Source: Escherichia coli
GTDB taxonomy: Bacteria; Pseudomonadota; Gammaproteobacteria; Enterobacterales; Enterobacteriaceae
Assembly (NCBI RefSeq): GCF_013122565.1
Contig: NZ_CP053258.1
Length of the DNA stretch: 64,000 nucleotides
Direction: 5' to 3' (one strand)
Below, piece by piece: positions 5,332 through 23,731 of the stretch. The position numbers and the translations under genes were made by a program. Below the pieces are notes generated by a model. It did not search any database, was not told where the DNA came from, and saw nothing but the letters and a program-made list of their open reading frames with translations. Position 1 is the stretch's first letter; every line of letters starts with the position of its first letter.

Positions 5332-5355
5332 ACGTCATTCGTTTAAAAATAAGAA

Positions 5356-5387
5356 AGCCGACTGCAACAAGTGAGTCGGCTTTTTTG
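5356..5387. terminator. bidirectional rho-independent terminator between convergent gpmA and aroG
   Basis: Stem agccgact / agtcggct around a 10-nt loop, followed by tttttt on the + strand and an A-rich run before it. Confidence 0.7.
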
Positions 5388-5408
5388 TTGCTAACAATGG
5401 AGCACATT

Positions 5409-5486
5409 GCCTGATGCGACGCTGGCGCGTCTTATCAGGCCTATGGTGATTCATCGGATACGCCACTCTGGCGGTGCATCCGACAA
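5409..5486. repeat. REP/BIME-like palindromic element
   Basis: gcctgatgcgacgctggcgcgtcttatcaggcc is the typical REP palindrome (gcctgatg...atcaggc), followed by a second GC-rich palindromic unit. Confidence 0.6.
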
Positions 5487-5493
5487 TTAAACC

Positions 5494-6546: not shown

Positions 6547-6616
6547 GTCTGTTCCAGTGTTGCCATACTTATCTTAGTGAATGCAATACTTCCAATCTAT
6601 ATCTTCCGTCAGAATG

Positions 6617-6634
6617 TGTAAACGGGGTTTTACA
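6617..6634 (-). promoter_or_regulatory. TyrR box in the aroG promoter
   Basis: Perfect dyad tgtaaa-cggggt-tttaca (TGTAAA-N6-TTTACA consensus) about 70 bp upstream of the aroG start. Confidence 0.7.
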
Positions 6635-6861
6635 CTATGAACGGATTAATCCTGGAATTAGCAAGAAAAACGCCAGATTGTCGCGAAAAACGAGATCTCT
6701 CCTACAATTTCTAACTGTAACTCCTTTGTTTGTTAATTATTTCAAGATTCTCTGCTGCGTTTCATAACCTGGCTGAAATCTTAAACCAATGCCTTATATT
6801 CACCTGCAAATGCACTGTTGGAAGAGGTTATCCGACATAACGACCATAACAGGAGCATCCT

Positions 6862-7242
6862 ATGAAAATGACAAAACTGGCCACACTATTTCTGACTGCC
6901 ACTCTAAGCCTTGCCAGCGGTGCCGCACTGGCTGCCGATAGCGGAGCGCAAACTAATAACGGCCAGGCAAACGCCGCAGCTGATGCGGGCCAGGTAGCCC
7001 CTGACGCCCGTGAAAATGTCGCGCCAAATAACGTCGACAATAACGGGGTAAATACCGGTTCTGGCGGCACAATGCTGCATTCGGATGGTTCTTCAATGAA
7101 CAATGACGGCATGACCAAAGATGAAGAGCACAAGAACACCATGTGTAAAGATGGTCGCTGTCCGGATATCAATAAAAAGGTACAAACCGGTGATGGCATC
7201 AATAATGATGTCGATACCAAAACCGACGGTACCACGCAGTAA
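6862..7242 (+). CDS. ybgS: secreted low-complexity protein YbgS
   Basis: 126 aa ORF with an N-terminal signal peptide ([24 protein letters not shown]) and an Asn/Gly/Asp-rich mature part. Confidence 0.8.
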
Positions 7243-7263
7243 CCCTGCAAAATAGCCAATAAT

Positions 7264-7294
7264 GGGAGAGCGGAGTCTCTCCCTTTTAATTTTT
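7264..7294 (+). terminator. rho-independent terminator after ybgS
   Basis: Stem gggagag / ctctccc with a short loop, followed by ttttaattttt. Confidence 0.65.
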
Positions 7295-7355
7295 CCCTTC
7301 TAAAAGCAGTATGATGTCATAAAGTTAAGTGAGAATAACTAAGGGATGACTCGTC

Positions 7356-8297
7356 ATGGCGCACTCACACTCACACACTTCCCCACACCTGCCAGAAGAT
7401 AATAATGCTCGTCGCTTGTTGTATGCTTTCGGCGTGACTGCCGGGTTTATGCTGGTAGAAGTCGTTGGTGGTTTTCTTTCTGGTTCTCTGGCATTGCTGG
7501 CCGATGCGGGTCATATGTTGACCGATACTGCTGCCCTGCTTTTTGCCCTACTCGCCGTGCAATTTTCACGTCGTCCTCCCACCATTCGCCACACTTTCGG
7601 TTGGCTAAGATTGACCACGCTCGCGGCGTTTGTGAATGCCATAGCCCTGGTGGTGATTACTATTTTGATTGTCTGGGAGGCGATAGAACGCTTCCGCACA
7701 CCGCGTCCGGTCGAGGGCGGCATGATGATGGCAATTGCCGTGGCTGGGTTGCTGGCAAATATACTTTCTTTCTGGTTACTTCATCACGGCAGCGAAGAGA
7801 AAAACCTCAACGTACGAGCAGCGGCACTGCATGTGCTCGGGGACCTGCTGGGTTCGGTTGGGGCTATTATTGCCGCGTTGATTATTATCTGGACCGGCTG
7901 GACACCTGCTGACCCTATTCTCTCGATACTGGTGTCGCTTCTGGTTCTGCGTAGCGCGTGGCGACTGTTGAAAGATAGCGTGAATGAATTACTTGAAGGT
8001 GCACCGGTATCGCTGGATATCGCTGAACTGAAGCGTCGTATGTGCCGGGAAATCCCGGAAGTCCGCAATGTGCACCATGTACATGTATGGATGGTAGGCG
8101 AGAAGCCGGTGATGACGCTGCATGTGCAGGTGATCCCGCCACACGATCACGATGCCTTGTTGGATCAGATCCAACACTACCTGATGGATCACTATCAGAT
8201 TGAGCACGCCACCATTCAGATGGAATATCAACCTTGTCATGGGCCAGACTGCCACCTGAATGAAGGGGTGTCTGGCCATTCACATCATCACCATTAA
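7356..8297 (+). CDS. zitB: cation diffusion facilitator zinc exporter
   Basis: 313 aa ORF with His-rich N- and C-termini ([11 protein letters not shown] ... GHSHHHH) and CDF transmembrane core. Confidence 0.9.
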
Positions 8298-9013
8298 TGG
8301 GACAGCGCGCGTGAGCCTCTTTCGCGTGCGCTGTTGATCCACATCCGACTGCCGTTGAGCGCAATAAAGGTCAGGATGATGTACTCCAGAGACATGGCGT
8401 AAACGCCCTGAAGTGCAAAAATAACGACGCTAATCACGTTAATAATCACCCACAACAGCCAGTTTTCCACATACTTACGCGTCATCAGAATCATTGCCAC
8501 GATAGATAACACCATCATGCATGAATCCCAGAACGGAAAAGCGTCCGGTTGCAGTTCAGGCATCACAACCTGTAATCCTAATGCTTGCATGATCATGACT
8601 GCCACGCGGGTCAAAAATGCAAACACCGGATTGATAAATACCGTCATCAGACCAATCGAAACAACGCAAACCGCCAACCAGCTGAGCGCCTTCGGCAATG
8701 GCAACCAGCGAATTTTCAACTCCGCCTCGTTCTGACTGGTTTGTCGCGACCACGCATACCAACCGTAAATATTCGCGGCAAAGAAAAACACCTGTAATAG
8801 CAGGCTGGCATACAGCTGAATCTGAAAGAAAATAATGCCAAACAAAGTGACGTTGATCAGGCCAAAGAAGTAGTTGCTGATCTTCTCCAGACTGGCAAGG
8901 CCAATACACAGCAACCCGGCGATCGTGCCTACCGCTTCGATCCATGAGAGATCATAACCGCCTGCCCCTATTGGTATATGTACCAGGATATTCTGCACAC
9001 TAAAAAAATCCAT
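8294..9013 (-). CDS. pnuC: nicotinamide riboside transporter
   Basis: 239 aa polytopic membrane ORF directly downstream of nadA; its stop overlaps the zitB stop (shared TTAA). Confidence 0.9.
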
Positions 9014-9050
9014 CTTTCCCCCAAAGCGTAACGTTACGCCTTATTATTCG

Positions 9051-10094
9051 TTATCCACGTAGTGTAGCCGCAAAATCCAGCATACGATTGAGCGGCACCA
9101 GCGCCCTCTCTCGCAGCCTCTCATCAACATGAACCTCGTGATTACTTCCTTCCTGTTCTAATGCCTCTGCGATAGCCTGAAGGCCATTCATGGCCATCCA
9201 CGGACAATGCGCGCAGCTGCGGCAGGTTGCACCCTCACCTGCGGTTGGTGCTTCCAGTAACTCTTTATCTGGCACCGCCTGCTGCATTTTGTAGAAAATA
9301 CCCCGATCGGTTGCCACAATAAGCCGCTGATGAGGCAATGCTTTTGCAGCAGCGATCAGTTGACTGGTGGAACCGACCGCATCCGCCATATCGACAATAG
9401 CTTGTGGTGATTCTGGATGCACCAGTATGGCAGCATCCGGGTATTCTTCTTGCAAGCGGGTTAACGCCTGAGTCTTAAATTCATCATGCACAATGCAGGC
9501 ACCCTGCCAGCATAAAATATCTGCGCCCGTCTGTTTTTGCACGTAACGCCCCAGATGTTTGTCGGGTGCCCAGATGATTTTTTCACCCAAACTATCCAGA
9601 TGATCAATAAGTTCGACGGCAATGCTTGAAGTTACCACCCAATCTGCCCGCGCTTTTACCGCAGCAGAAGTGTTGGCGTAGACGACGACAGTACGATCGG
9701 GATGGGCATCGCAAAATGCGTTAAATTCTTCAACAGGGCAGCCGAGATCCAGTGAACACTCAGCCTGAAGTGTCGGCATCAGAATTGTTTTTTCCGGACT
9801 GAGAATTTTGGCGGTTTCTCCCATAAATCTCACCCCAGCGACTAACAACGTAGAAGCGGGATGCTTTGCACCGAAGCGCGCCATTTCCAGAGAATCAGAA
9901 ATACAGCCACCGGTTTCTTCTGCCAGTTGTTGAATTTCGGGATCGGTATAGTAATGGGCAACCATCACCGCATTACGTTCTTTTAGCAGACGTTTTATCT
10001 TCTCGCGGTAATACGCTTTTTCATCAATGCTTAACGGCGTCGGCTTCGGGGGGAAAGGATAAATCGCCGTGTCTGGATCAAACATCACGCTCAT
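9051..10094 (-). CDS. nadA: quinolinate synthase A
   Basis: 347 aa ORF starting [22 protein letters not shown] with conserved Cys residues for the Fe-S cluster. Confidence 0.93.
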
Positions 10095-10166
10095 CTTACC
10101 ATCTCGTTTTACAGGCTTAACGTTAAAACCGACATAAGCGTGATATTCGCTGTTATCGGTGTAATT

Positions 10167-10184
10167 TGTTTTATATGCTAAACA
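10167..10184 (-). promoter_or_regulatory. NadR-operator-like dyad in the nadA promoter
   Basis: tgttttatatgctaaaca is a TGTTT ... AAACA inverted repeat about 75 bp upstream of the nadA start. Confidence 0.45.
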
Positions 10185-10340
10185 AGATAGTCGAATGGTG
10201 GGGAAAAGTCACTCGAATTACGCCTAATGTGCAGGATGCGTCATTTTACGCCTAATTCTACCGACATAGAGTTGCTTGCACAGTAAGCTCTGACTATGTC
10301 ATCAGGTTTACAAAGTTAAATTGAGGGATGCCTGAATAGC

Positions 10341-10367
10341 AAAAAAGCGCCTTTAGGGCGCTTTTTT
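10341..10367 (-). terminator. rho-independent terminator at the 3' end of the lysT tRNA operon
   Basis: aaaaaagcgcc-tttag-ggcgctttttt: GC stem flanked by A- and T-runs, just 3' of the last tRNA on the minus strand. Confidence 0.75.
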
Positions 10368-10371
10368 ACAT

Positions 10372-10447
10372 TGGTGGGTCGTGCAGGATTCGAACCTGCG
10401 ACCAATTGATTAAAAGTCAACTGCTCTACCAACTGAGCTAACGACCC
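10372..10447 (-). tRNA. lysQ: tRNA-Lys (UUU)
   Basis: 76-nt exact copy of the tRNA-Lys sequence on the minus strand, CCA encoded, anticodon loop CUUUUAA. Confidence 0.9.
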
Positions 10448-10480
10448 CTTGCGGGATTATGCTGCTTTAATCATTCAGGA

Positions 10481-10556
10481 TGGTGGGTCGTGCAGGATTC
10501 GAACCTGCGACCAATTGATTAAAAGTCAACTGCTCTACCAACTGAGCTAACGACCC
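10481..10556 (-). tRNA. lysZ: tRNA-Lys (UUU)
   Basis: Identical 76-nt tRNA-Lys copy. Confidence 0.9.
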
Positions 10557-10604
10557 ATACGGGTGTTACCTGAAAGATTTCTACTCGGAACCAATCTTTA
10601 AAAT

Positions 10605-10702
10605 TGGTGGGTCGTGCAGGATGACTCGCTTCGCTCGCCCTACGGGCCGTTGCTGGCGCAACGTTATCCTTCACGCTTAACATCTGAGTTTGATGTTAAA
10701 AC
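10605..10702 (-). repeat. spacer repeat carrying a truncated tRNA-Lys 3' end (copy A)
   Basis: Starts with the 3'-terminal ~17 nt of tRNA-Lys (rc tggtgggtcgtgcagga) then diverges into a GC-rich ~80 bp unit; near-identical to the copy at 10909-11006. Confidence 0.6.
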
Positions 10703-10778
10703 TGGTGGGTCGTGCAGGATTCGAACCTGCGACCAATTGATTAAAAGTCAACTGCTCTACCAACTGAGCTAACGACCC
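10703..10778 (-). tRNA. lysY: tRNA-Lys (UUU)
   Basis: Identical 76-nt tRNA-Lys copy. Confidence 0.9.
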
Positions 10779-10781
10779 GAG

Positions 10782-10857
10782 TGGTGGGTGATGACGGGAT
10801 CGAACCGCCGACCCCCTCCTTGTAAGGGAGGTGCTCTCCCAGCTGAGCTAATCACCC
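10782..10857 (-). tRNA. valZ: tRNA-Val (UAC)
   Basis: 76-nt tRNA on the minus strand (rc gggtgattagctcagctgggagagcacctcccttacaagg...), anticodon UAC, CCA encoded. Confidence 0.9.
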
Positions 10858-10908
10858 GATACTGCGCTGGATACTACAAACTACTTCCACCGAACCCACC
10901 GTAATTAG

Positions 10909-11006
10909 TGGTGGGTCGTGCAGGATGACTCGCTTCGCTCGCCCTACGGGCCGTTGCTGACGCAACGTTATCCTACACGCTTAACATCTGTCTTCGATGT
11001 TAAAAT
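10909..11006 (-). repeat. spacer repeat carrying a truncated tRNA-Lys 3' end (copy B)
   Basis: Same structure as copy A with 3-4 substitutions. Confidence 0.6.
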
Positions 11007-11082
11007 TGGTGGGTCGTGCAGGATTCGAACCTGCGACCAATTGATTAAAAGTCAACTGCTCTACCAACTGAGCTAACGACCC
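11007..11082 (-). tRNA. lysW: tRNA-Lys (UUU)
   Basis: Identical 76-nt tRNA-Lys copy. Confidence 0.9.
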
Positions 11083-11084
11083 GG

Positions 11085-11160
11085 TGGTGGGTGATGACGG
11101 GATCGAACCGCCGACCCCCTCCTTGTAAGGGAGGTGCTCTCCCAGCTGAGCTAATCACCC
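11085..11160 (-). tRNA. valT: tRNA-Val (UAC)
   Basis: Identical 76-nt tRNA-Val copy. Confidence 0.9.
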
Positions 11161-11195
11161 GATACTACGCTGGATACTACAACTAACTATGTTAG

Positions 11196-11268
11196 TGGTG
11201 GGTCGTGCAGGATGACTCGACTTCGTCTCGCCCTTCGGGCCGTTGCTGACGCAACGTTATCCTTCACG
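11196..11268 (-). repeat. spacer repeat carrying a truncated tRNA-Lys 3' end (copy C, more diverged)
   Basis: Same tRNA-Lys 3' fragment followed by a related but more diverged GC-rich segment. Confidence 0.5.
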
Positions 11269-11295
11269 TTTTACTACCGCTTCCACCTTAGCGCT

Positions 11296-11371
11296 TGGTG
11301 GGTCGTGCAGGATTCGAACCTGCGACCAATTGATTAAAAGTCAACTGCTCTACCAACTGAGCTAACGACCC
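11296..11371 (-). tRNA. lysT: tRNA-Lys (UUU)
   Basis: Identical 76-nt tRNA-Lys copy; first gene of the operon on the minus strand. Confidence 0.9.
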
Positions 11372-11535
11372 ACTTTTTCGTTGCTTTCGGTTTGTTTGAT
11401 ATCCCGTGGCAACGGCGGCATATATTACTGATTTCAGACTTGAGCGCAACAAAAATTTCGATGTAGATCACTCAACTGCTTATGATTCGCACGACACGAC
11501 CAGAAATAATGCGACTTCTGGTCGTGTGTTATGCA

Positions 11536-12327
11536 TTACATCGCGTTCAGACGTTTTTGCGCCTGTTTAGCGCCATCAGTACCAGGGTATTTACTGATAA
11601 CCTGCTGGTATACGGCTTTCGCTTTTGCGGTGTCACCTTTGTCCTGCATGATGACGCCGACTTTAAACATCGCATCTGCAGCCTTTGGTGACTTCGGATA
11701 GTTTTTCACTACCGAAGCAAAATAGTACGCCGCATCATCTTTTTTACCCTTGTTGTAGTTTAACTGACCCAGCCAATAATTGGCGTTTGGCAGGTAAGTT
11801 GAATCAGGGTAATTTTTGATGAAATTCTGAAATGCCACCATTGCGTCATCCTGGCGGGATTTATCCTGCACCAGCGCAATAGCTGCATTGTAATCCGTGT
11901 TTGCATCGCCGCTTTTCACCGGCGCGCCAGCATTCGCAGTACCAGCATCAGCTGTCGGCGTCGTTGATGCCGCCGCACCGCTTTGATCACCGCTGGTTGA
12001 TTGCGCCGCTGCACCACCGCTGCTGAGGCTGTCGATCTGCAACAGGATCTGCTTTTGCCGCTCCACGACCTGATTCAGTTGATACTGATTTTCCTGAATC
12101 TGACCACGCAGGGAATCAATATCGGATTGATTATCAGAGAGTTGTTGCTGGAGTTGGGTTAAAAGCTGGCTGTGAGCATTAGAAATACGCTCAAGTTGAG
12201 TGACGCGGTCTTCGACCGAGCCTGAGCCGACACTACTGATTGGTGCCTGAGCAAAAGCGGCCCAGGGGGCCGCTATACCAACCAGTAACGACAGACTCAA
12301 TAGTTGATGTCTGAAGTTACTGCTCAT
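11536..12327 (-). CDS. cpoB: cell division coordinator CpoB (YbgF), periplasmic TPR protein
   Basis: 263 aa ORF with a signal peptide, Gln-rich coiled-coil N-domain and C-terminal TPR-like repeats; last gene of the tol-pal cluster. Confidence 0.9.
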   Translation of the reverse strand: MSSNFRHQLLSLSLLVGIAAPWAAFAQAPISSVGSGSVEDRVTQLERISNAHSQLLTQLQQQLSDNQSDIDSLRGQIQENQYQLNQVVERQKQILLQIDSLSSGGAAAQSTSGDQSGAAASTTPTADAGTANAGAPVKSGDANTDYNAAIALVQDKSRQDDAMVAFQNFIKNYPDSTYLPNANYWLGQLNYNKGKKDDAAYYFASVVKNYPKSPKAADAMFKVGVIMQDKGDTAKAKAVYQQVISKYPGTDGAKQAQKRLNAM

Positions 12328-12336
12328 GCAATTCTC

Positions 12337-12882
<546 letters not shown>

Positions 12883-12892
12883 TTAATTATTA

Positions 12893-14185
12893 TCACAGAT
12901 ACGGCGACCAGGCAGGGAATTTGACCTGTCCATCAGTTGCCGGAAGACGCGCTTTGAAACGCCCATCTGTAGAAACCAAATTCAGCACGGATCCCATCCC
13001 CTGAGAAGAGCTGTAGATTACCATAGTGCCGTTAGGTGCCAGACTTGGCGTTTCATCCAGGAACGTGGACGACAGAACTTGTACGCCTCCCGTTGCCAGA
13101 TCTTGTTTGGCAATGTGCTGCTGCCCACCGTTGGAGCTGACCATTACCATAAATTTACCGTCGCTGCTGACATCCGCATCCTGGTTCTGCGAACCTTCCC
13201 AGGTAATACGTTGTGGCGCACCGCCGTTGATATTCACTTTATAAACCTGTGGACGACCGGCCTGGTCAGAAGTAAATGCCAGGTTCTGGCTGTCCGGGAA
13301 CCAGGTCGGTTCGGTATTGTTACTGCGACCATCAGTCACCTGGCGGATCTGACCAGAAGCCAAATCCATTACGTACAGGTTCAGACTACCGGTTTTCGAC
13401 AAGGCGAATGCCAGTTTGCTGCCGTCTGGCGAGAATGCAGGTGCACCGTTGTGACGCGGGAATGAAGCCACCTGACGTACAGCGCCATTTGCCAGCGTTT
13501 GGATGACCAGCGCGGAACGACCACTTTCGAAGGTCACATAAGCCAGTTTAGAACCGTCTGGTGACCATGCCGGAGACATCAGCGGCTGCGGTGAACGGTG
13601 AACGACAAACTGGTTGTAACCGTCATAGTCAGATACGCGCAGTTCATACGGGAACTGACCGCCGTTGGTCTGAACAACGTAGGCAATACGGGTACGGAAC
13701 GCACCTTTAATGCCGGTCAGTTTTTCAAACACTTCATCACTGGCGGTATGACCAGCATAACGCAGCCACTGCTTGTTCACTTTGTACGAGTTCTGAGCAA
13801 GTACAGTACCCGGTGCGCCGCCAGTGTCAACAAGTTGATAAGCAACATTGTAAGAACCATCCGGATTCGGAGTGACCTGACCGACAACCACAGCGTCAAT
13901 GCCCAGCGCAGACCATGCAGCTGGTTGTACTTCCTGCGCACTACCCGGCTGCTGTGGCAGACGAGCGCGATCTAACGGATTAAATTTACCGCTGTTACGC
14001 AAGTCAGCAGCAACGATGCCGCCAATATCTTCAGGTGCCGCACCTGGCCCCGCCCACTGGAAAGGAACAACACCAATAGGACGACCGGAATCTACACCGC
14101 TATCGATCACAATGCGGACTTCAGCATGCAGAACTGATGCCCACAGTATGAGAAAACCAAATGCTACTCGTAATGCCTGCTTCAT
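12893..14185 (-). CDS. tolB: Tol-Pal system periplasmic beta-propeller protein
   Basis: 430 aa starting [21 protein letters not shown] (signal peptide); second Met chosen on RBS spacing. Confidence 0.93.
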
Positions 14186-14317
14186 CATATCTCCCTTATC
14201 TGGACCGATGGCCCACGATAATTTAGCAGAATGTTAACAAACTAAAATACACAAAACTACCAGAACCCCGTGGCAACCGGTGCCTGATGTTGACCGTCGG
14301 AACAGTCAGCATCGCGA

Positions 14318-15598
14318 TTACGGTTTGAAGTCCAATGGCGCGTTTTTGAACACTTCATATACTGCCTGGCTTGGTGGTTTCGGGATCTTCGCAAGTTTAG
14401 CCGCTGCCAACGCAGCCTGACAAAGTGCGGGATCGCCACCTTCAGGTTTGATATCCAGTAACATACCATCGGGTGCCAGTTTTATGCGCAGCGTACAGGT
14501 TTTGCCTGCATAGGACGATGCGTCATAGAACTTACTTTCGATAGCAGATTTAATCTGCCCGGCATAGTTATTGATATCGGCCCCTGATGCGCCATTGTTT
14601 TTAGTATTACCACTCCCGGCAGGCGAAGCATTGTTCCCTTTCGCTCCTCCCCCCGTTTTCGGTGCATTCTTACCAGAGCTTAGCTCACCGAAAATATCAT
14701 CTGCCTCTGCGGCAGCTTTTGCTGCAGCGGCTTTTTCAGCTGCTGCTTTTTCAGCTGCTGCTTTTGCAGCTGCCGCTTTTTTGTCTGCGGCGGCTTTTTC
14801 TGCCGCTGCTTTCTTATCAGCTGCTGCCTTTTCAGCAGCCGCTTTTTCTGCTGCTTTTTTGTCGGCTGCAGCTTTCTCTGCTGCCGCTTTCTTATCAGCT
14901 GCTGCCTTTTCAGCAGCCGCTTTCTTCTCAGCTTCTGCCTTGGCTTTTTCAGCAGCTTCAGTTGCTGCTTTCTTTCTTGCTTCAGCTGCAGCCGCTTCTG
15001 CCGCTTCCGCTTTCTTCTTCAGTGCCGCAGCGGCTGCCTCGGCTTTTTTCTGCGCTTCGGCTGCGGCTTTGGCGGCTTCTGCTTCTGCTTTTTTCTTCGC
15101 GTCTGCAGCCGCTTTCTTCGCTGCTTCTTCCGCAGCTTTAGCATCCGCTTCGGCCTTCGCTTTAGCATCTGCCGCCGCTTTCGCTGCCGCCTCTTCCGCT
15201 TGCTTCTGCTTTAACTCGGCCTGTTTTGCGGCTTCTTCAGCCTGCTTTTTCTGTTCCTGAGCAGCTAACCGCTCTTTCTCAAGTTGCTTCAGGCGTTCCT
15301 GTTCAGCCGCTTGTTTCTCACGCAGTTCTTCAGCAGCCTGCTGTTCCTTCATCTTGCGCTGCTCATCAGAACGCTTCGCGCTTGATTCCTGGCTTTGCAT
15401 GCGTTTGTACTGCTCAACTACCGCACCTGAATCAACCATGACAGCGTCGATGGACGAACCACCGCCGCCTCCGGCTGAAGCTTCTATATTCTCATCGAAC
15501 GAACTCCAGATCAGCGCCGCAAATAAGATGACATGCAGCACTGCTGAAATAATTATCGCCCGCTTGAGCTTGTCGTTTTGTTCGGTTGCCTTTGACAC
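14318..15598 (-). CDS. tolA: Tol-Pal system protein TolA
   Basis: 426 aa: N-terminal TM helix, long Ala/Lys/Glu-rich helical domain II, C-terminal domain III. Confidence 0.93.
   Translation of the reverse strand: MSKATEQNDKLKRAIIISAVLHVILFAALIWSSFDENIEASAGGGGGSSIDAVMVDSGAVVEQYKRMQSQESSAKRSDEQRKMKEQQAAEELREKQAAEQERLKQLEKERLAAQEQKKQAEEAAKQAELKQKQAEEAAAKAAADAKAKAEADAKAAEEAAKKAAADAKKKAEAEAAKAAAEAQKKAEAAAAALKKKAEAAEAAAAEARKKAATEAAEKAKAEAEKKAAAEKAAADKKAAAEKAAADKKAAEKAAAEKAAADKKAAAEKAAADKKAAAAKAAAEKAAAEKAAAAKAAAEADDIFGELSSGKNAPKTGGGAKGNNASPAGSGNTKNNGASGADINNYAGQIKSAIESKFYDASSYAGKTCTLRIKLAPDGMLLDIKPEGGDPALCQAALAAAKLAKIPKPPSQAVYEVFKNAPLDFKP
14700..15230. repeat. imperfect tandem repeats inside tolA (domain II coding region)
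   Basis: Near-identical ~40 bp blocks (gccgc(tg)ctttcttatcagctgctgccttttcagcagccgcttt) recur at 14802-14846 and 14883-14923 among many shorter gctgc/cttt units. Confidence 0.7.
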
Positions 15599-15662
15599 TC
15601 TCGGTTTCCAAAAACTGTTCGCCTGTTACCCGCTATCTTTCAAGCAAGGGAAACGCAGATGT

Positions 15663-16091
15663 TTAGATAGGCTGCGTCATTAAACCAACCGATTTCACAC
15701 CCGCACTATGTAACAAGTTCAGTGCTTTAATTATTTCATCGTAAGGCACATCTTTTGCGCCACCGATCAGAAAGACCGTTTTCGGGTTGGCCTTGAAACG
15801 GCTGGACACTTCCGCCACCACCTGCTCTGGTGGTAAACGCTCCAGGCGATCTTTCTCAACCACCACGGTGTACTGACCAATACCAGACACTTCAACAATC
15901 ACTGGCGGATTATCGTTACTGCTCACCGCCTGTGATTCAGTAGCGTCTGGCAGATCGACCTCCACGCTCTGGGTGATGATGGGCGCTGTCGCCATAAAGA
16001 TCAGCAACAGCACCAGCAGTACGTCCAGCAACGGTACAATGTTGATTTCGGACTTGAGATCGCGACGACCTCGTCCACGCGCTCTGGCCAT
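15663..16091 (-). CDS. tolR: Tol-Pal system protein TolR
   Basis: 142 aa ExbD/TolR-family ORF with a single TM helix. Confidence 0.93.
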   Translation of the reverse strand: MARARGRGRRDLKSEINIVPLLDVLLVLLLIFMATAPIITQSVEVDLPDATESQAVSSNDNPPVIVEVSGIGQYTVVVEKDRLERLPPEQVVAEVSSRFKANPKTVFLIGGAKDVPYDEIIKALNLLHSAGVKSVGLMTQPI

Positions 16092-16094
16092 GGC

Positions 16095-17188
<1,094 letters not shown>

Positions 17189-17337
17189 TTTACATCCCGG
17201 TAATGCAACAAAAGTTAGAGCTTTTAAACGCTGCTACTATACGCGCGCGATTGAGGTTTGGGAATGAGGGCAAGTTAAGGGAGCGTAAAAATTTATGGGC
17301 CTGAAGCGGCCCATAATTTTTTAAAGAGAATTCTGAT

Positions 17338-17631
17338 TTAAAAGAAGAAGAAAATCAGCCCGACAATGAGAACAATATCGGCAAGCAATGGGCAAAAAAT
17401 CCCTTGCCAGAGAACCTTCTGCGGACGAAAGCCCACGCCGTGAATCACACCAGCACAGACGGCCCACATCAGCAATAAACCATGCCAGATTTCCAGCTCA
17501 CTGGTCTTCGCGGCAAAACGAGATGGGTCCCAAAACATACATCCTGCTAACAGAAGCGCCATCACGAAGGAAAGCGCCCGCAGGGGGCGCTTGTCCATTA
17601 CCGCATACAAGGTCGCGATAATCTTACTCAT
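17338..17631 (-). CDS. ybgE: small inner-membrane protein YbgE (cyd operon)
   Basis: 97 aa hydrophobic ORF downstream of cydX; its start codon overlaps the cydX stop by 1 nt. Confidence 0.8.
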   Translation of the reverse strand: MSKIIATLYAVMDKRPLRALSFVMALLLAGCMFWDPSRFAAKTSELEIWHGLLLMWAVCAGVIHGVGFRPQKVLWQGIFCPLLADIVLIVGLIFFFF

Positions 17632-17744
17632 CAGATGTCTTCTTGACCGGCTTTGCCTGATTCGACGTGCTCAAGCGCCAGCGCGGTGATTACCCCAAAC
17701 GAACAGGCAAGAAGCGTTCCCAGAATCCATGCGAAATACCACAT
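17631..17744 (-). CDS. cydX: cytochrome bd-I accessory small subunit CydX (YbgT), 37 aa
   Basis: Absent from the ORF track (too short). Minus-strand ATG at 17744 after an aggagc RBS, 14 nt downstream of the cydB stop; translates to MWYFAWILGTLLACSFGVITALALEHVESGKAGQEDI. Confidence 0.85.
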   Translation of the reverse strand: MWYFAWILGTLLACSFGVITALALEHVESGKAGQEDI

Positions 17745-17758
17745 TTTTAGCTCCTTAC

Positions 17759-18898
17759 TTAGTACAGAGAGTGGGTGTTACGTTCAATATCTTCTTTGGT
17801 GATACGACCGAACATTTTCCAGTAACACCAGGCGGTGTAGAGCAGAATGATCGGTACCAGAACCACCGCAACCCAGGTCATGACGTTAAGCGTCAGCTGG
17901 CTGGAAGTTGCATCCCACATTGTCAGACTTGCGTTCATCATGGTGCTGGACGGCATCACAAACGGGAACATTGCGATACCGGCAGTCAGGATGATGCAGG
18001 CCAGCGTCAGGGAGGAGAACACAAACGCCCACGCGGCTTTATCCATACGTGCAGTCAGGATGGTCAGCAGCGGCAGAACTACACCCAGTGCCGGAATAGC
18101 CCACAGAATTGGCGTGTTGTTGAAGTTAACCAGCCATGCGCCAGCTTCACGAACCACTACTTTATTCTGCGGGTTAGAGGCTGCGTAATGGTCCATTGTC
18201 GATTTCACGACATAACCATCGATACCGTACATCACCCATACGCCAGCCAGTGCGAAGCAGACCAGTGTCACCAGTGCCGCCACCTGAGCCGTTGCACGGG
18301 TACGCAGGTGCAGTTCGCCCACGGTACGCATTTGCAGATAGGTTGCGCCCTGAGTAATGATCATCCCTACGCTCACCACGCCTGCCAGCAGGCCGAACGG
18401 ATTAAGCAACTGAAAGAAGTTACCGGTGTAGTACAGACGCAGATATTCATCAACGTTGAACGGTACGCCCTGCAACAGGTTACCGAACGCTACACCAATT
18501 ACCAGCGGCGGAACGAAGCTACCAATGAAGATGCCCCAGTCCCACATGTTACGCCAGCGGGTTTCTTCAATCTTGGAGCGGTAGTCAAAACCGACCGGAC
18601 GGAAGAACAAAGACGCCAGCACGAGGATCATCGCCACATAGAAGCCGGAGAACGCAGCGGCATAGACCATCGGCCAGGCAGCAAAGAGTGCGCCGCCCGC
18701 GGTGATCAGCCAAACCTGGTTACCGTCCCAGTGTGGAGCAATGGAGTTAATCATAATTCGACGCTCGGTGTCGTTACGACCGAGAAAACGGGTGAGCATG
18801 CCCACCCCCATGTCGAAACCGTCAGTGACTGCAAAACCAATCAGCAGAACGCCAACCAGCAGCCACCAGATAAAACGCAATACTTCATAATCGATCAT
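17759..18898 (-). CDS. cydB: cytochrome bd-I ubiquinol oxidase subunit II
   Basis: 379 aa polytopic membrane ORF directly downstream of cydA. Confidence 0.95.
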   Translation of the reverse strand: MIDYEVLRFIWWLLVGVLLIGFAVTDGFDMGVGMLTRFLGRNDTERRIMINSIAPHWDGNQVWLITAGGALFAAWPMVYAAAFSGFYVAMILVLASLFFRPVGFDYRSKIEETRWRNMWDWGIFIGSFVPPLVIGVAFGNLLQGVPFNVDEYLRLYYTGNFFQLLNPFGLLAGVVSVGMIITQGATYLQMRTVGELHLRTRATAQVAALVTLVCFALAGVWVMYGIDGYVVKSTMDHYAASNPQNKVVVREAGAWLVNFNNTPILWAIPALGVVLPLLTILTARMDKAAWAFVFSSLTLACIILTAGIAMFPFVMPSSTMMNASLTMWDATSSQLTLNVMTWVAVVLVPIILLYTAWCYWKMFGRITKEDIERNTHSLY

Positions 18899-18913
18899 TT
18901 GACGACTCCTGTC

Positions 18914-20482
18914 TTAGCGTGCCGGCTGAGTAGTCGTGGAAGACTGCTCAAAGTGATAGCGACCGGTTTTCAGGCTGCTTGGGCCGAGGCGTGCAAACTT
19001 GAACATTAAGAACAATTCTGCCACCAGGAACAGGGTATACAGGCCGCAAATCAGCACCATTGAGAAGATGAGATCGCCTGCGGTCAGTGACGAGTTCGCC
19101 ACAGCTGTCGGCAGCACTTCACCGATAGCCCACGGTTGGCGGCCATATTCAGCCACGAACCAGCCCGCTTCTACAGCAATCCACGGCAGCGGAATACCGT
19201 ACAGCGCGGCGCGCAGCAGCCATTTTTTCTCGCCAATGCGGTTGCGGATGACACTCCAGAAAGAGAGCGCGATGATTGCCAGCAGCAGGAAGCCACACGC
19301 CACCATGATACGGAACGCGAAGTACAGCGGCGCTACACGCGGAATGGAGTCTTTGGTTGCCTGTTGAATCTGAGCTTCAGTCGCATCAGCCACGTTTGGC
19401 GTATAGCGTTTCAGCAGCAGACCGTAACCGAGGTCTTTCTTCATGCTATTGAACTGGTCACGAACCGCCTGGTCGGTAGAACCAGAACGCAGTTGTTCGA
19501 GCAGAGAGTAAGCCTTCATCCCGTTACGAATGCGTTCTTCATGCTGCACCATCAGTTCTTTCAGGCCGATAACTGGAGTATCCACGGAACGCGTTGCAAT
19601 GATGCCCAGCGCGTAAGGGATCTGGATCGCAAATTTGTTCGTCTCCTCTTCCTGATCAGGAATGCCGAACAGAGTAAAGGCAGCAGGCGCAGGTTGCGTT
19701 TCCCACTCGGCTTCAATAGCAGCCAGTTTGGTTTTCTGCACGTCGCCCATTTCGTAACCAGATTCATCACCCAGAACAATAACAGACAGAACGGCAGCCA
19801 TACCGAAGCTGGCAGCGATAGCAAAGGAGCGTTTAGCGAAGGCGAAGTCACGACCTTTCAGCATATACCATGCGCTGATACCGAGGATGAACATCGCGCC
19901 AGTCACATAACCAGACGCTACAGTGTGAACGAATTTCACCTGAGCAACCGGGTTAAGCACCAGCTCGGAGAAGCTCACCATCTCCATACGCATAGTTTCA
20001 AAGTTGAAATCGGACGCGATTGGGTTTTGCATCCAGCCGTTCGCAACCAGAATCCACAGTGCGGACAGGTTTGAACCGAGCGCCACCAGCCAGGTGACAC
20101 ACATATGCTGAACTTTACCCAGACGATCCCAACCGAAGAAGAACAGACCTACAAAGGTGGATTCGAGGAAGAAGGCCATCAGACCTTCGATTGCCAGCGG
20201 CGCACCGAAGATATCCCCTACATAGTGGGAATAGTAAGACCAGTTAGTCCCGAACTGGAACTCCATAGTCAGACCGGTAGCCACACCCAGAGCGAAGTTG
20301 ATACCAAACAACTTGCCCCAGAACTTGGTCATATCTTTATAAATCTGTTTGCCGGAAAGGACGTAGACCGTTTCCATAATGGCCAGCAGGAACGCCATAC
20401 CGAGCGTCAGTGGCACAAAAAGGAAGTGGTACATCGCGGTCAAGGCAAACTGTAAGCGCGACAGTTCGACTATATCTAACAT
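18914..20482 (-). CDS. cydA: cytochrome bd-I ubiquinol oxidase subunit I
   Basis: ORF 18914..20485 trimmed to the second Met ([28 protein letters not shown]) after an aggag RBS; 522 aa. Confidence 0.95.
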
Positions 20483-21287
20483 CATGACTCCTTGCTCATC
20501 GCATGAAGACTCCGAGAGTGAACCCCGTTAGAAAGGGTCACACGCATGCCCCAATACAAAATTATTTGCTCGCCTCTATCGTTGCCATTTCATCAAAAGA
20601 GGAAAAGACAATGATAAAAAAGTTGCAAATATGTTAATGAATAAACCAAATTGATCCCGTAATTATATTACGCCGCAAAATCCTTACAATAAACAGGTTT
20701 TTATTGAGCAAATTTGCATTTTTCGACAGTGATCAATTTATAGCGAAATTGTCACGATCTCACCAATTTGATCTACGACAATTTATCGTGTTTTGCAGAT
20801 TTTTTTCAAGAATTAAAAATTGATTTATATCAAAACTAACCAAATATGTTAATTATGTATAAACCATAGATCATTAGTGATTTTATTGTTAATTTATTGT
20901 GAAATATTTATGCAACACAATTATTACAATGAAAAGGTATAGATAAAAAACCAGTGTTGTATTTAACAGAACCGCCTTATCCACTTTTTATAATACCAAT
21001 TGATTAGAGTAGCCAATTTGTTGCTATTTTACATAACATATTTTTATCAAAGTTAATTGATTGTTGCCTTTATGAGCACCGACCGTAAGCCCGTTATGTT
21101 ATTGTTTCATTGGTAATAATCACTTAAATGTATCGATGGAACAGGTATGACTTAGCGGGAGTGATTGTTTCTGAGTGAACAGGGGCCACTTTTGCCTGAT
21201 AAATGAAAAATGAGCGATTTTTGCAAGTTAGTTTTTCTATAGCCGTGTACGCTCAGCGCCTCGCTTGATTACAATGAGGTTGCTGCT
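20483..21287. promoter_or_regulatory. long AT-rich cydA upstream regulatory region, shared with the divergent 314-aa ORF
   Basis: About 800 bp non-coding, strongly AT-rich with several TTGAT/ATCAA-like half-sites; the cydAB promoter region is remembered as long and multi-promoter. Individual sites not resolved. Confidence 0.5.
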
Positions 21288-22232
21288 ATGAGTCCTGATA
21301 ATATCGGTTCGGCTGTCAATCGCTTCTCAGGTTGGCCATCTAATGATCCTCTAAAAACAGATAAAGAATCAACGACATCACCCGTGACAGTGCAGGTAAT
21401 AAAGATGATTGCCGCCATCCTTGACCCACATCGGATAGTCGTTGGAATCGATACACTTTATACAACGCAGCGCGAAACATTTACCTCAGAGAGTCAACAG
21501 CTCATTGAATCAGCATTGCAAACACTTCATGTGATGAATTTAAATAACCTGGAAACAAATCGCGATGAAGAAGGTCACTATCTGGCTTTTGAATATAACG
21601 TTGACACCTCTGACAGAATAACCGTTTCTGCTTACAATGAAAAAAATCCTGGCTGCTATGGCCAATGTCTTTTAATACAGGATGACGAAACAGACTTATT
21701 CAACCTGATAAAAATTAAAATTTTTGAAGCCAGGCATAATTATGTCGCTCAATTGATGAGCGATCCAGAATTTATGTTCAAATTCAGTTATAGCGCTCAA
21801 CAAAATAGATTAGAACCTCATCTTCTGGTTCCCGCTTATTTCCCTCTAAAAACAAACGAACCGGTTACGCAAGAGGATGTACTGTTACTTTATCGTTTCT
21901 TTAAAATGAATGATGATTTTAACAAATTAACATCAGATGAATACATGAGTATCCTGACACCTCTGATGAAGTGTGAGCGTAGCGTCCACGACAACAACAG
22001 GTATGTGACGGGCAAAGATACCCTTCTTCTGGACTATCCTCCTTCTGGTAACCAGATACATTTCCATGTTTTCCCTGACGAATCAGCAACACTAGTCCTT
22101 TATTTTTCAAACAATGACCTTGAATATTTCGTCTTTGAAAGAGATATTCCGAGCCAGTATCGCTTTTTCAAAATGTTTACCAATCTGGCACTGGTTATAG
22201 ATCAGTTAACCGAAGCCCATAAAATACTTTAA
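21288..22232 (+). CDS. hypothetical protein, 314 aa, AT-rich codon usage, no recognisable motif
   Basis: ATG at 21288 with a GAGG RBS 8 nt upstream; Ser/Thr/Pro-rich N-terminus; no family recognised by eye. Confidence 0.55.
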   Translation: MSPDNIGSAVNRFSGWPSNDPLKTDKESTTSPVTVQVIKMIAAILDPHRIVVGIDTLYTTQRETFTSESQQLIESALQTLHVMNLNNLETNRDEEGHYLAFEYNVDTSDRITVSAYNEKNPGCYGQCLLIQDDETDLFNLIKIKIFEARHNYVAQLMSDPEFMFKFSYSAQQNRLEPHLLVPAYFPLKTNEPVTQEDVLLLYRFFKMNDDFNKLTSDEYMSILTPLMKCERSVHDNNRYVTGKDTLLLDYPPSGNQIHFHVFPDESATLVLYFSNNDLEYFVFERDIPSQYRFFKMFTNLALVIDQLTEAHKIL

Positions 22233-22312
22233 TTTTCTATATATCCCTATGGCAAATATTGCTAAACAATGCCTGGGGATTAATTTTTATTACTCACGGA
22301 AAGATTTAAATA

Positions 22313-22735
22313 ATGATATCATCTCAGATCTCTTTCAGTACTCTTCCTGTCAATGCAACATACGCTTCAGAGACAACAGTTGACACACAAAAATTCTCTG
22401 ACATCCTCTACTCAGCGGGGTGTTCCCTAAAGGATATGGCTTATCTGAGCAGATGTCTGGCATCAATACACCCGACTATCGCCAAAAACATTTATGAAAC
22501 AGAAAATCTCAGCGATCAAAAATTACTGCATATTGATTGCCGTAGTACAAATGACATCAAGATAAATATCTTTTTTGGTCAGCAACGAGAAGGATTAATT
22601 GAAATTAGTTCTGACACAGTTATTTTTTCGATACTGTCTTCATTGATTGACTCCGCCATTTCTAAATTTCAACATCAAAACCCGGTTAACGGTTCAGTTA
22701 ATCCTGAACTATTGTATGAGGATTATACTGATTAA
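22313..22735 (+). CDS. hypothetical small acidic protein, 140 aa
   Basis: Co-directional ORF 80 bp after the 314-aa ORF, same AT-rich composition; weak RBS, so the start is uncertain. Confidence 0.45.
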   Translation: MISSQISFSTLPVNATYASETTVDTQKFSDILYSAGCSLKDMAYLSRCLASIHPTIAKNIYETENLSDQKLLHIDCRSTNDIKINIFFGQQREGLIEISSDTVIFSILSSLIDSAISKFQHQNPVNGSVNPELLYEDYTD

Positions 22736-23281
22736 ATCCACCCTGTCGCGAAAAATGGCCTGCGTTATTGCCAGACGTAATAAAACCTTTGATTAACGTT
22801 ACTCATACTGATAGCACCTTCATGTACCTCTCTTTTTTACGCAAATCAAAAGAGCTAACGAAGGTCATAATTCGCATGAATCATTAACCATTTGTTATTT
22901 TCAACATTACTTTTACATTAAGCAGAAATGAATGGTAGTGAAATTCGACTTAAATTTTATGAAATGCATTTACTTATGGCTAAACCCATATCACTAAAAT
23001 GCAAATTAGAAGTAGATCACAAATATCTCAATACACCAAATCAAGTTAATTTTAAAAATTTAACATTCATGACATTAGTTGACATAACACACTGAATTAA
23101 CATGGAAATTTAAAAACACACTTTAAACAATCATTTCCCGAAAGACATTTTGAAAATAGATCAATTGCAACATTACGGTCAGATAAAGACACTCCTGTGA
23201 TATTAAACCTGTGCCGTTATGAACGGCCATAAATACGACGTGTGTAACTTATTTTACTCTCTGTCTTACAAAGGATTACCC

Positions 23282-23731
23282 ATGAAGAAAGCAACACTTG
23301 TGATTGGCGTTATTGGCGCGGACTGCCATGCAGTAGGCAATAAAGTTCTGGACCGCGTTTTTAGCAACCACGACTTCAGAGTCATTAATCTGGGCGTAAT
23401 GGTCAGCCAGGACGAATATATTGATGCTGCCATTGAAACTGGCGCTGACGCGATTGTCGTCTCCTCTATCTATGGGCATGGCGATATCGACTGTCTGGGC
23501 ATGCGCGAACGCTGCATCGAGCGTGGACTGGGGGACATCCTGCTCTATGTGGGCGGTAACCTGGTGGTAGGAAAACATGACTTCGCTGACGTGGAAAACA
23601 AGTTCAAAGAGATGGGATTTGATCGCGTCTTTGCCCCAAGTCATGACTTAGAAGAGGTTTGTCAGCTGATGGCCCACGATATCAACCAACGTCATGACGT
23701 TGATACTCGCATTCTTGAAGAGGCAATCTGA
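23282..23731 (+). CDS. mamA: glutamate mutase sigma (S) subunit, B12-binding (methylaspartate mutase small subunit)
   Basis: ORF 23219..23731 trimmed to the ATG at 23282 after AAGGA; [24 protein letters not shown] carries the DxHxxG cobalamin-binding motif and aligns with clostridial GlmS/MutS. Confidence 0.85.

Follow-up and report, generated by a model that had tools for sequence, protein, structure and literature searches.

TolA, the stalk that transduces force in the Tol-Pal system, is also used as a co-receptor for entry by filamentous phages and group A colicins, and repetitive coding sequence in the middle of its gene raises the question of whether the stalk differs in length between strains of Escherichia coli by whole repeat units, and how such units would be gained or lost. 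The gene analyzed here lies on the minus strand of a 64,000-nucleotide stretch of E. coli contig NZ_CP053258.1 (hereafter, the window). Its product passed the curated equivalog models for TolA, NF007065 (557.9 bits, cutoff 213) and TIGR02794 (310.5 bits, cutoff 59.45), and is identical to the protein encoded by a 1281-nt CDS annotated as tolA in E. coli Res13-Sevr-PER07-33 (WP_001624913.1). Matches in PDB were 1S62, 3QDP, 2X9A, 1TOL and the full-length entry 9K49 (421 aa), with E-values from 3e-59 to 7e-225. Translations of the flanking ORFs (TolR, TolQ, YbgC, TolB, Pal, and CpoB) gave the gene order ybgC-tolQ-tolR-tolA-tolB-pal-cpoB, which is also annotated in the aligned O157:H7 record. Helix boundaries were taken from an AlphaFold model predicted from the single sequence (mean pLDDT 70, pTM 0.28). 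The gene and its domains are as follows.

14318–15598, minus strand: tolA CDS, 426 aa, GTG start (ORF list)
15497–15598, minus strand: domain I, N-terminal membrane-anchor helix, aa 1–34 (AlphaFold helix 2–34)
14678–15421, minus strand: domain II, long Ala/Lys/Glu-rich alpha-helical region, aa 60–307 (AlphaFold single-sequence model)
14585–14677, minus strand: Gly/Ser/Asn-rich unstructured linker between domains II and III, aa 308–338 (AlphaFold and sequence)
14327–14611, minus strand: domain III, globular TolA C-terminal domain, aa 330–424 (Pfam PF06519, 130.9 bits)

The translation of domain I contains the residues S18, H22, L29, and S33 of the SHLS motif, a motif of the TolA anchor that includes His22 (PMC10666116). 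Domain II was predicted to form two helices, aa 60–206 and aa 211–307, separated by a helix break at aa 207–210, and the hairpin geometry was taken from the published TolA II hairpin model (PMC8928145). Ala (105), Lys (50), and Glu (39) make up 79% of the 247 residues at aa 66–312. The linker to domain III is without predicted secondary structure, with pLDDT below 50 at aa 311–335. Two ORFs on the plus strand, of 229 aa (14571–15260) and 159 aa (14662–15141), were rejected as antisense genes; their products are of low complexity (Ala/Phe/Ser or Leu/Gln), and they are spurious because they are the complement of GCN/AAR codon repeats. RefSeq records covering this region annotate no gene antisense to tolA.

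The earlier note, made from the letters of the window, had described imperfect repeats at 14700–15230 that included two nearly identical blocks of about 40 bp, and had proposed that these expand or contract by slippage. Its range covers a core tract of 14 units together with more degenerate repeats upstream, and the two blocks correspond to an exact direct repeat of 38 bp, AAAGCGGCTGCTGAAAAGGCAGCAGCTGATAAGAAAGC on the coding strand, found by an exact-repeat search. The features of the tract are listed below.

14705–14926, minus strand: core tandem-repeat tract, 14 in-frame units of 15 or 18 bp, aa 225–298 (unit-by-unit parse, Tandem Repeats Finder)
15040–15211, minus strand: degenerate upstream repeats of domain II, period 12/15/24 (weaker Tandem Repeats Finder arrays of period 12/24)
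14886–14923, minus strand: copy A of the 38-bp repeat, units 1–2 and the start of unit 3 (exact-repeat search)
14808–14845, minus strand: copy B of the 38-bp repeat, units 6–7 and the start of unit 8 (exact-repeat search)
14735–14764, minus strand: the extra unit relative to K-12, two identical 15-mers AAAGCAGCAGCTGAA encoding KAAAE, aa 279–283 and aa 284–288 (K-12 alignment)

The units of the core tract encode K(1–2)A(3–4)(E/D), and in the predicted hairpin the tract accounts for 74 of the 97 residues that form the second helix. Tandem Repeats Finder reported overlapping arrays of periods 15, 33, and 78 over 14706–14928, the period-78 array having 2.8 copies, 85% matches, and a score of 291. 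Copy B lies 78 bp, which is five units, downstream of copy A within the gene. Identity at a lag of 78 nt was at least 80% across gene nt 659–753 and about 93–96% over roughly 95 bp. In 2000 permutations in which synonymous codons were shuffled among positions of the same amino acid, the longest exact repeat had a mean length of 16.8 nt (SD 2.9), and just one permutation reached 38 nt. The 38-bp repeat thus exceeds what the protein sequence forces.

TolA of K-12 (C600 and MG1655) has 421 aa and 13 units. Pairwise alignment showed that the window allele is the K-12 allele plus one perfect 15-bp tandem duplication of unit 11, which accounts for the entire 5-aa difference; the suggestion that a length of 426 aa might differ from other strains by whole units was therefore correct. 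The 15-nt insertion is 100% identical to the next 15 nt and lies within a 21-nt exact repeat of period 15. The same length has been reached by two different duplications, that of unit 11 in the window allele and L001, and that of a unit-10-type KAAAA in L019 and L020. The exact match between the 78-bp-spaced blocks is 20 bp in K-12 and 38 bp in the window allele, a lengthening produced by one synonymous change at gene nt 696, which is T in K-12 and L001 and A in the window.

Of 5,426 complete E. coli genomes, 5,425 had a match to tolA, and the rows listed from these 5,425 included 16 in-frame lengths, from 1185 to 1311 nt (394–436 aa). The expansion and contraction of the repeats predicted from the sequence is thus seen among strains, whose unit count is clearly not one and the same. 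In two samples of rows taken at even spacing from the ranked list, 25 of 40 and 39 of 60 had the K-12 length of 1266 nt (13 units), which gives an estimate of about 62–65%; for two O157 alleles, genomes were counted by identity band. All 19 intact alleles that were fetched are in frame, with every length difference within domain II and with the protein of domains I and III identical throughout. The 17 of them with a length other than that of K-12 differ solely by in-frame indels inside domain II, in agreement with the view that it is the helical periplasmic linker that changes in length. The degenerate upstream repeats also vary: one 24-bp site at gene nt 427–450 (15149–15172 in the window) carries a perfect 24-bp duplication in L007 and a 24-bp deletion in L017.

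The alleles are largely lineage-specific, as with the O157:H7 types and the 1311-nt allele found in many similar records, indicating that change is slow on epidemiological time scales and that tolA is not a classic rapidly switching locus. On/off phase variation, in which a change of repeat number alters the reading frame or promoter spacing and so switches expression, was rejected, given that all units are multiples of 3 nt and that 19 of the 19 intact alleles are in frame. The only disrupted copy among those fetched is that of NIPH17_0036 (L013), annotated as frameshifted and containing internal stops. An inversion inside this copy was considered and rejected; BLAST against K-12 aligned only plus-strand flanks (91–93% identity) around a noisy, unalignable center, and the disruption looks like assembly noise or uncorrected read noise. 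Lengths not divisible by three were also listed for NCTC9112 (1298 nt) and 19KM2326N (1265 nt).

The junctions of the natural indels were then compared. Insertions are perfect tandem duplications of 6, 15, 15, 24, 30, 30, 33, and 60 bp whose ends share 6–14 nt. Deletions of 45–81 bp are flanked by direct repeats of 8–12 nt, where the 95th percentile for random positions in domain II is 6–8 nt. The indels of L005, L009, and L012 relative to K-12 are flanked by weak homology of 0–5 nt, and for this reason some events are regarded as composite or as having arisen on a different ancestor. A natural 1188-nt allele, L014, equals K-12 minus 78 bp, with the junction inside the higher-order repeat of about 78 bp. 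Four alleles of different length in the O55:H7/O157:H7 lineage show 0 substitutions between them and are set apart by an 81-bp deletion and by duplications of 30 bp and 60 bp: 1266 nt in O55:H7 CB9615, 1185 nt in the EDL933/Sakai type of O157:H7, 1215 nt in the 121/FRIK2455 type, and 1275 nt in PNUSAE151637. At 99% identity or higher, 106 genomes matched the 1185-nt allele (carriers include EDL933, Sakai, Xuzhou21, and 86-24) and 144 matched the 1215-nt allele. Indels without substitutions also separate K-12 from O111:H8, and L005 from L007 and L017. Hence, indels in tolA outpace point substitutions in several allele pairs. The series of four O55:H7/O157:H7 alleles is also the nearest natural proxy for change of copy number within a clonal population.

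Polymorphism of this tract is ordinary and has been known since 2012. Zhou, Michiels, and Aertsen (PLoS One 2012, PMC3477136) described 13 units of 15/18 bp in tolA of MG1655 and, by PCR sizing and sequencing of 234 isolates, found 8–16 units, with 66% of isolates having 13. In K-12, contraction occurred at a frequency of 6.9 × 10⁻⁵, dropped to 15% in recA, increased 3.3-fold in uvrD, and was not affected by mutS (PMC3477136). The dominant event in their experiments was a deletion of five units, which equals the 78-bp spacing of the blocks described above, and deletions reaching upstream of unit 1 were also observed (PMC3477136). Copy number was further found to tune tolerance of deoxycholate, osmotic/acid tolerance (high salt at low pH), and the plating of filamentous phage fd (PMC3477136).

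We conclude that the tract in the window is almost certainly the variable-number tandem repeat already known within E. coli tolA, whose units are probably gained and lost by both slippage and RecA recombination. Head-to-tail units of 15/18 bp encode the C-terminal half of domain II; each contributes about 1.4 turns of Ala/Lys/Glu helix, and together they form a higher-order repeat with a period of about 78 bp. Tandem duplication adds units, and deletions between short direct repeats remove them. Two routes are likely: misalignment at microhomologies of 5–14 nt during replication and, between the longer blocks spaced 78 bp apart, unequal recombination that depends on RecA. Slippage or template switching and recombination probably both contribute, the split between the two routes being one that we infer. 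The earlier note had proposed slippage as the mechanism, which fits the 5–14 nt microhomologies at natural junctions; contraction in K-12, on the other hand, is mainly RecA-dependent and suppressed by UvrD according to the published experiments, a pattern indicative of recombination and not of slippage alone, and that part of the proposal has to be amended (PMC3477136). As every unit is a multiple of 3 nt, TolA stays in frame and just the length of the helical stalk changes, by an expected 7.5–9 Å or so per unit if the stalk is helical at 1.5 Å per residue, and a change in unit number leaves the membrane anchor and the TolB/phage/colicin-binding domain III unaffected. The 14-unit allele of the window corresponds to the common 13-unit allele with unit 11 perfectly duplicated. 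The anatomy of the repeat, its polymorphism between strains, the junctions, and the excess of indels over substitutions were observed directly in the present analysis; the phenotypes of copy-number change and its dependence on RecA and UvrD are taken from the literature (PMC3477136).

Errors of sequencing or assembly in a low-complexity repeat could in principle produce length differences, and the noise-like, frameshifted copy in NIPH17_0036 and the lengths not divisible by three in NCTC9112 and 19KM2326N are of the kind that such errors would leave. However, none of the 19 other fetched alleles is disrupted or out of frame, their indels are whole units with clean junctions, identical alleles turn up in many independent assemblies (the 106 and 144 genomes mentioned above), and PCR sizing and sequencing of 234 isolates agree (PMC3477136). 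We give this explanation almost no credence and consider it effectively refuted. It is no more credible that the repeat is merely a protein-level Ala/Lys/Glu helix whose DNA similarity reflects composition and codon bias without special mutability. Some repetition of DNA is unavoidable in a domain that is 79% Ala, Lys, and Glu, and most units of the core tract differ from each other at synonymous sites, yet the exact repeat is 38 nt against 16.8 ± 2.9 nt in the permuted sequences, indels exceed point substitutions in several allele pairs, and contractions in K-12 were measured directly at the frequency given above (PMC3477136). 

A reading in which copy-number change is essentially RecA-dependent unequal homologous recombination between the 78-bp-spaced blocks, with no real part for slippage, is favored by the recA and uvrD effects and the dominance of the 78-bp deletion (PMC3477136), and by the identity of about 93–96% at the 78-bp lag. 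Against this, 15% of events remain without RecA, and the assay used in those experiments selected for clones that had lost unit 3, which biases it towards the 78-bp event. For efficient exchange by RecA in E. coli, a minimum of roughly 25 bp is usually given. The 38-bp perfect match in the window is longer than this and favors the RecA route, whereas the identity of 5–14 nt that bounds most natural events of 6–81 bp is too short for such exchange. We therefore regard recombination as the exclusive route as unlikely and retain the reading in which both routes operate. That the variation, though real, is selectively neutral, any stalk of about 394–436 aa being equally good and the alleles simply marking lineages, is somewhat doubtful but a reading to be taken seriously. 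Consistent with neutrality, alleles track lineages (as do the O157:H7 types and the 1311-nt allele shared by a block of similar records), natural copy numbers fall within a narrow band, and constructs with 6–13 units did not differ from wild type in their response to SDS, salt, and salt plus acid (PMC3477136). However, each increase in copy number raised deoxycholate tolerance, over a total of four orders of magnitude, and fd plating was highest at 13 units and fell to 28–43% for all non-13 constructs, although these phenotypes were measured on constructs with 2–39 units and not on 13 versus 14 (PMC3477136). About two thirds of strains have 13 units in two independent surveys, which likewise do not amount to a one-unit comparison, and the shared majority suggests stabilizing selection.

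For the allele of the window itself, a stronger reading is that it is measurably less stable than the K-12 allele and alters partner binding. We consider this quite improbable, and the predicted instability comes from the sequence of the allele. The rate of the five-unit contraction could lie well above the 6.9 × 10⁻⁵ of K-12, because 38 bp is longer than the 25 bp or so usually quoted for RecA. The TolA segment reported to bind CpoB/YbgF is K-12 residues 280–313, a region in which contractions were never recovered experimentally (PMC3477136, PMC8928145), and the extra unit (aa 284–288) is inserted at its edge. A difference of one unit, as in the window's 14-unit allele, may nevertheless have no measurable effect. 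If the general reading is true, copy number would set the resting position and the maximum reach of domain III, giving a tunable trade-off between bile tolerance and the entry of phages and colicins. As is known from the literature, steps of 5–6 residues in the stalk offer E. coli a cheap and reversible tuning of envelope robustness (e.g. to bile salts) versus phage susceptibility. As a marker of lineages, the tract also changes faster than point substitutions accumulate. Moreover, tolA confirms that a genuine mutable repeat is recognizable from raw sequence alone.

An intragenic tandem-repeat polymorphism in E. coli tolA was reportedly the subject of a further 2012 study by Zhou, Vanoirbeek, Aertsen, and Michiels (Res Microbiol 163:316). 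Compared with the PLoS One study of Zhou et al. (PMC3477136), the window shows the same gene, the same tract, and the same 15/18-bp units at the Lys/Ala-rich end of domain II; its 14 units fall inside their natural range of 8–16, and the share of 13 units here (about 62–65%) is close to their 66%. The larger census and the junction analysis thus agree with the published picture, and extend it by a sampling frame of 5,425 complete genomes versus 234 isolates, by measured junction microhomologies, by the O55:H7/O157:H7 allelic series with zero substitutions, by two independent 426-aa alleles, and by the 78-bp-spaced perfect repeat, which is 38 bp in the window allele and 20 bp in K-12.

Lahiri et al. 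2011 (Microbiology 157:1402) are said to have found a loss of domain II repeats in tolA of Salmonella enterica Typhi. As cited in a later paper (PMC8787014), that study linked a sequence difference in tolA between Salmonella enterica Typhi and Typhimurium to detergent resistance and envelope phenotypes. Differences between lineages are seen in tolA of both Salmonella and E. coli, though the Salmonella case concerns another species and is known here from the citing paper. TonB is the sister force transducer, and its domain II (Glu-Pro/Lys-Pro dipeptide repeats) is an analogous periplasm-spanning spacer that, like TolA II, consists of short repeats whose length and rigidity affect function (PMC10666116); the TonB spacer is a polyproline II helix, whereas TolA II is alpha-helical, and the two share no sequence similarity. 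Zhou et al. used the term 'hypermutable contingency loci' for tolA (PMC3477136). The phase-variable contingency loci of the Neisseria/Haemophilus type resemble tolA in that mutation is repeat-mediated, reversible, and frequent in a surface or envelope gene. Those loci switch expression on and off, whereas the units of tolA, being multiples of 3 nt, tune the length of the protein, and they do so at rates of about 10⁻⁵ to 10⁻⁴, the low end for contingency loci.

The repeats lie in an ORF whose assignment to tolA is secure by sequence comparison. Its product scored 557.9 bits against the TolA equivalog NF007065 (cutoff 213) and 310.5 bits, far above the cutoff, against TIGR02794, contained the Pfam TolA C-terminal domain at aa 330-424, and matched full-length E. 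coli TolA chains in PDB (e.g. 9K49, 421 aa, E = 7e-225). Translations of the upstream ORFs corresponded to TolR, TolQ, and YbgC, and those of the downstream ORFs to TolB, Pal, and CpoB.

Features of the tolA repeat region in the window
14318-15598, minus strand: tolA ORF, GTG start, 426 aa
14705-14926: core tolA tract, aa 225-298, 14 units of 15 or 18 bp (in-frame parse)
14886-14923 and 14808-14845: exact 38-bp direct repeat, 78 bp apart (exact-repeat search)

Units 1-7 of the tract read KKAAAE, KAAAD, KKAAAE, KAAAD, KKAAE, KAAAE, and KAAAD, and units 8-14 read KKAAAE, KAAAD, KKAAAA, KAAAE, KAAAE, KAAAA, and KAAAE. Tandem Repeats Finder reported overlapping arrays with periods of 15, 33, and 78 at 14706-14928, the period-78 array comprising 2.8 copies (score 291, 85% matches), and weaker arrays of period 12, 15, or 24 at 15040-15211. 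The two near-identical blocks of ~40 bp described in the earlier note were recovered as the exact 38-bp repeat with 78-bp spacing. When synonymous codons were shuffled among positions with the same amino acid (2000 permutations), the mean length of the longest exact DNA repeat was 16.8 nt (sd 2.9), with a single permutation attaining 38 nt, confirming that the DNA repeat exceeds what composition would give. A repeat existing purely at the protein level was rejected by this test together with allele pairs differing by indels only, such as K-12 vs O111:H8 (45-bp deletion) and, among tolA copies fetched from other E. coli genomes, L005 vs L007 or L017. Two plus-strand ORFs opposite the repeats, 14571-15260 (229 aa) and 14662-15141 (159 aa), encode low-complexity Ala/Phe/Ser or Leu/Gln sequences; they were rejected as genes and regarded as an automatic consequence of the codon repeat, and such ORFs could mislead ORF-based gene callers.

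The tolA gene of K-12 strains (C600, MG1655, and derivatives) is 1266 nt (421 aa), as is that of the unrelated B strain BL21(DE3). The window allele differs from K-12 by one 15-nt insertion, a 100% match to the 15 nt that follow it; the two identical AAAGCAGCAGCTGAA units that result at 14735-14764 duplicate K-12 unit 11 perfectly. The suspicion that the 426-aa length might differ from other strains by whole units was thus borne out, K-12 being one unit shorter. As 426 aa was reached by two different duplications, of unit 11 (window and L001) and of a unit-10-type KAAAA (L019 and L020), this length class is recurrent. At 78-bp spacing, the perfectly matching stretch measures 20 bp in K-12, 38 bp in the window, and 68 bp in a 1311-nt allele; the lengthening from 20 to 38 bp by a single synonymous change at gene nt 696 is a small new point, and the longer perfect repeat in the window could raise the recombination rate.

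tolA was present in 5,425 of 5,426 complete E. coli genomes. When the ranked match list was sampled at regular intervals, the 1266-nt form made up 25 of 40 and 39 of 60 rows, and at least 16 in-frame lengths occurred among the matches listed, the shortest 1185 nt (394 aa) and the longest 1311 nt (436 aa). The expansion and contraction between strains that had been proposed is evident from this range, and clearly several tolA lengths exist rather than one repeat count in all strains. Twenty copies were fetched, and the 19 intact alleles were all in frame, with every length difference in domain II and with domains I and III identical in protein sequence. At 1311 nt (436 aa), the allele of E. coli Ecol_AZ161 is the longest of the common ones and accounted for ~8-10% of sampled rows. 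Because its 68-bp exact repeat is the longest perfect homology at 78-bp spacing in any allele seen, it would be expected to be the likeliest to undergo five-unit contraction.

Assembly artefact was rejected as the source of the length variation, save for a few clearly poor records. In the copy from E. coli NIPH17_0036 (L013, NZ_AP024561.1), the annotation of tolA at 601-1742 records a frameshift and internal stops; compared with K-12, its flanks are only 91-93% identical and its repeat region is unalignable with a noisy centre, which looks like uncorrected long-read noise and not a real pseudogene. Two matches with lengths not divisible by three, 1298 nt (NCTC9112) and 1265 nt (19KM2326N), may be similar errors.

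The O55:H7/O157:H7 lineage contains four tolA length alleles with zero point substitutions between them.

tolA length alleles in the O55:H7/O157:H7 lineage
O55:H7 CB9615: 1266 nt
O157:H7 EDL933/Sakai type: 1185 nt, 81-bp deletion, 12-nt microhomology
strain 121, FRIK2455, Z1816 type: 1215 nt, perfect 30-bp duplication
PNUSAE151637: 1275 nt, further perfect 60-bp duplication

The 1185-nt and 1215-nt alleles were matched at ≥ 99% identity by 106 and 144 genomes, respectively. In the lineages compared, repeat changes have accumulated faster than point substitutions across the 1.2-kb gene, and the alleles are lineage markers, not rapid switchers.

Insertions were perfect tandem duplications of 6, 15, 15, 24, 30, 30, 33, and 60 bp, apart from one imperfect 45-bp insertion, and the ends of the duplications shared 6-14 nt (flanking-repeat length minus insert length). 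Deletions of 45, 66, and 81 bp had direct repeats at their edges, of 8, 10, and 12 nt, respectively; the 95th percentile at random positions in the same region was 6-8 nt. Events in L005, L009, and L012 showed little flanking identity when measured against K-12 and are probably composite or occurred in a different ancestral allele. L014, a natural allele of 1188 nt, lacks 78 bp relative to K-12; the junction falls within the higher-order 78-bp repeat, and the only substitution lies elsewhere in the gene. The best account of the variation is an in-frame variable-number tandem repeat that would change by two routes, microhomology-mediated misalignment, which fits the natural junctions, and RecA-dependent unequal exchange involving the blocks 78 bp apart, in keeping with published genetics. 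The observation on the repeats is confirmed, and its interpretation in the earlier note, as repeats whose expansion or contraction alters the length of the helical linker, is supported.

AlphaFold, run on the single window TolA sequence (mean pLDDT 70, pTM 0.28), predicted one helix spanning aa 60-206 and another spanning aa 211-307, separated by a break of low confidence (204-212), and then an unstructured Gly/Ser/Asn linker and domain III. The first predicted helix (147 residues) would span ~220 Å at 1.5 Å per residue, equal to the length of the hairpin in a published AlphaFold model of E. coli TolA II, the model on which the putative hairpin geometry of domain II rests (PMC8928145). The second predicted helix has 97 residues, 74 of which come from the repeat tract; by standard helix geometry, one unit would add ~7.5-9 Å to the stalk, and the natural 42-residue spread would amount to ~63 Å. 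E. coli ET350 carries a 6-bp GCAGCT duplication (Ala-Ala) at K-12 gene nt 603, outside the classical repeat tract, in an Ala run at ~aa 202-203 beside the predicted helix break or hairpin turn.

The best identity of the window tolA among complete RefSeq E. coli genomes was 99.3%, and the 4.8-kb tolR-cydA core segment (within 14318-20500) best matched strain 042 (99.4%), with 4,057 genomes at ≥ 99%. The window is thus clearly E. coli-like but lacks a near-identical counterpart among these genomes, and it may come from a lineage missing from them, for example a Shigella or a rare phylogroup. An insertion upstream of cydA, from ~21100 to at least 25000, carries the methylaspartate mutase genes glmS and glmL and hypothetical genes. 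Window 5000-25000 was covered to at least 80% in only 6 of 5,426 genomes; among the matches listed, four reached ≥ 97% coverage (two O157:H7 strains, FDAARGOS_1371, and ST2747) and the remainder align only to ~20860-21120. Downstream of cpoB, a tRNA array at 10372-11371 holds seven genes (five tRNA-Lys UUU, two tRNA-Val UAC) vs five (four Lys, one Val) in the aligned O157:H7 F3113 record, and can be regarded, judging from these sequences, as a second tandem copy-number polymorphism in the window.

The phenomenon has been published, with a known mechanism that earlier work has put partly to the test. Variation of the tolA repeats was described by Zhou, Michiels and Aertsen (PLoS One 2012, PMC3477136), who report 13 imperfect 15/18-bp units in MG1655, and cite a Res Microbiol 2012 paper for 8-16 units in 234 isolates, 66% with 13. 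In isogenic constructs with 2-39 units, more copies gave higher deoxycholate tolerance; 0.6 M NaCl at pH 5 was tolerated best with 6-13 units, and fd phage plating peaked at 13 (PMC3477136). Contractions in a clonal population stood at 6.9e-5, fell to 15% of that level in recA, rose 3.3-fold in uvrD, and were unaffected by mutS (PMC3477136). The commonest contraction was a 5-unit deletion (PMC3477136), and five units would correspond to the 78-bp spacing of the blocks. Units 12 and 13 were absent from all contractions, perhaps since K-12 residues ~280-313 bind YbgF/CpoB (PMC3477136); the duplicated window unit (aa 279-288) borders this segment. Domain II chimeras show outer-membrane stabilisation and colicin import to be tuned by the structure and the length of the stalk (PMC10666116). 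The tolA of Salmonella Typhi differs in sequence from that of Typhimurium, a difference tied to detergent resistance in a second-hand account (PMC8787014). The complete-genome census adds to this published picture by way of confirmation, as do the signatures at the junctions, the O157 series with zero substitutions, and the finding that the 426-aa length arose independently more than once.
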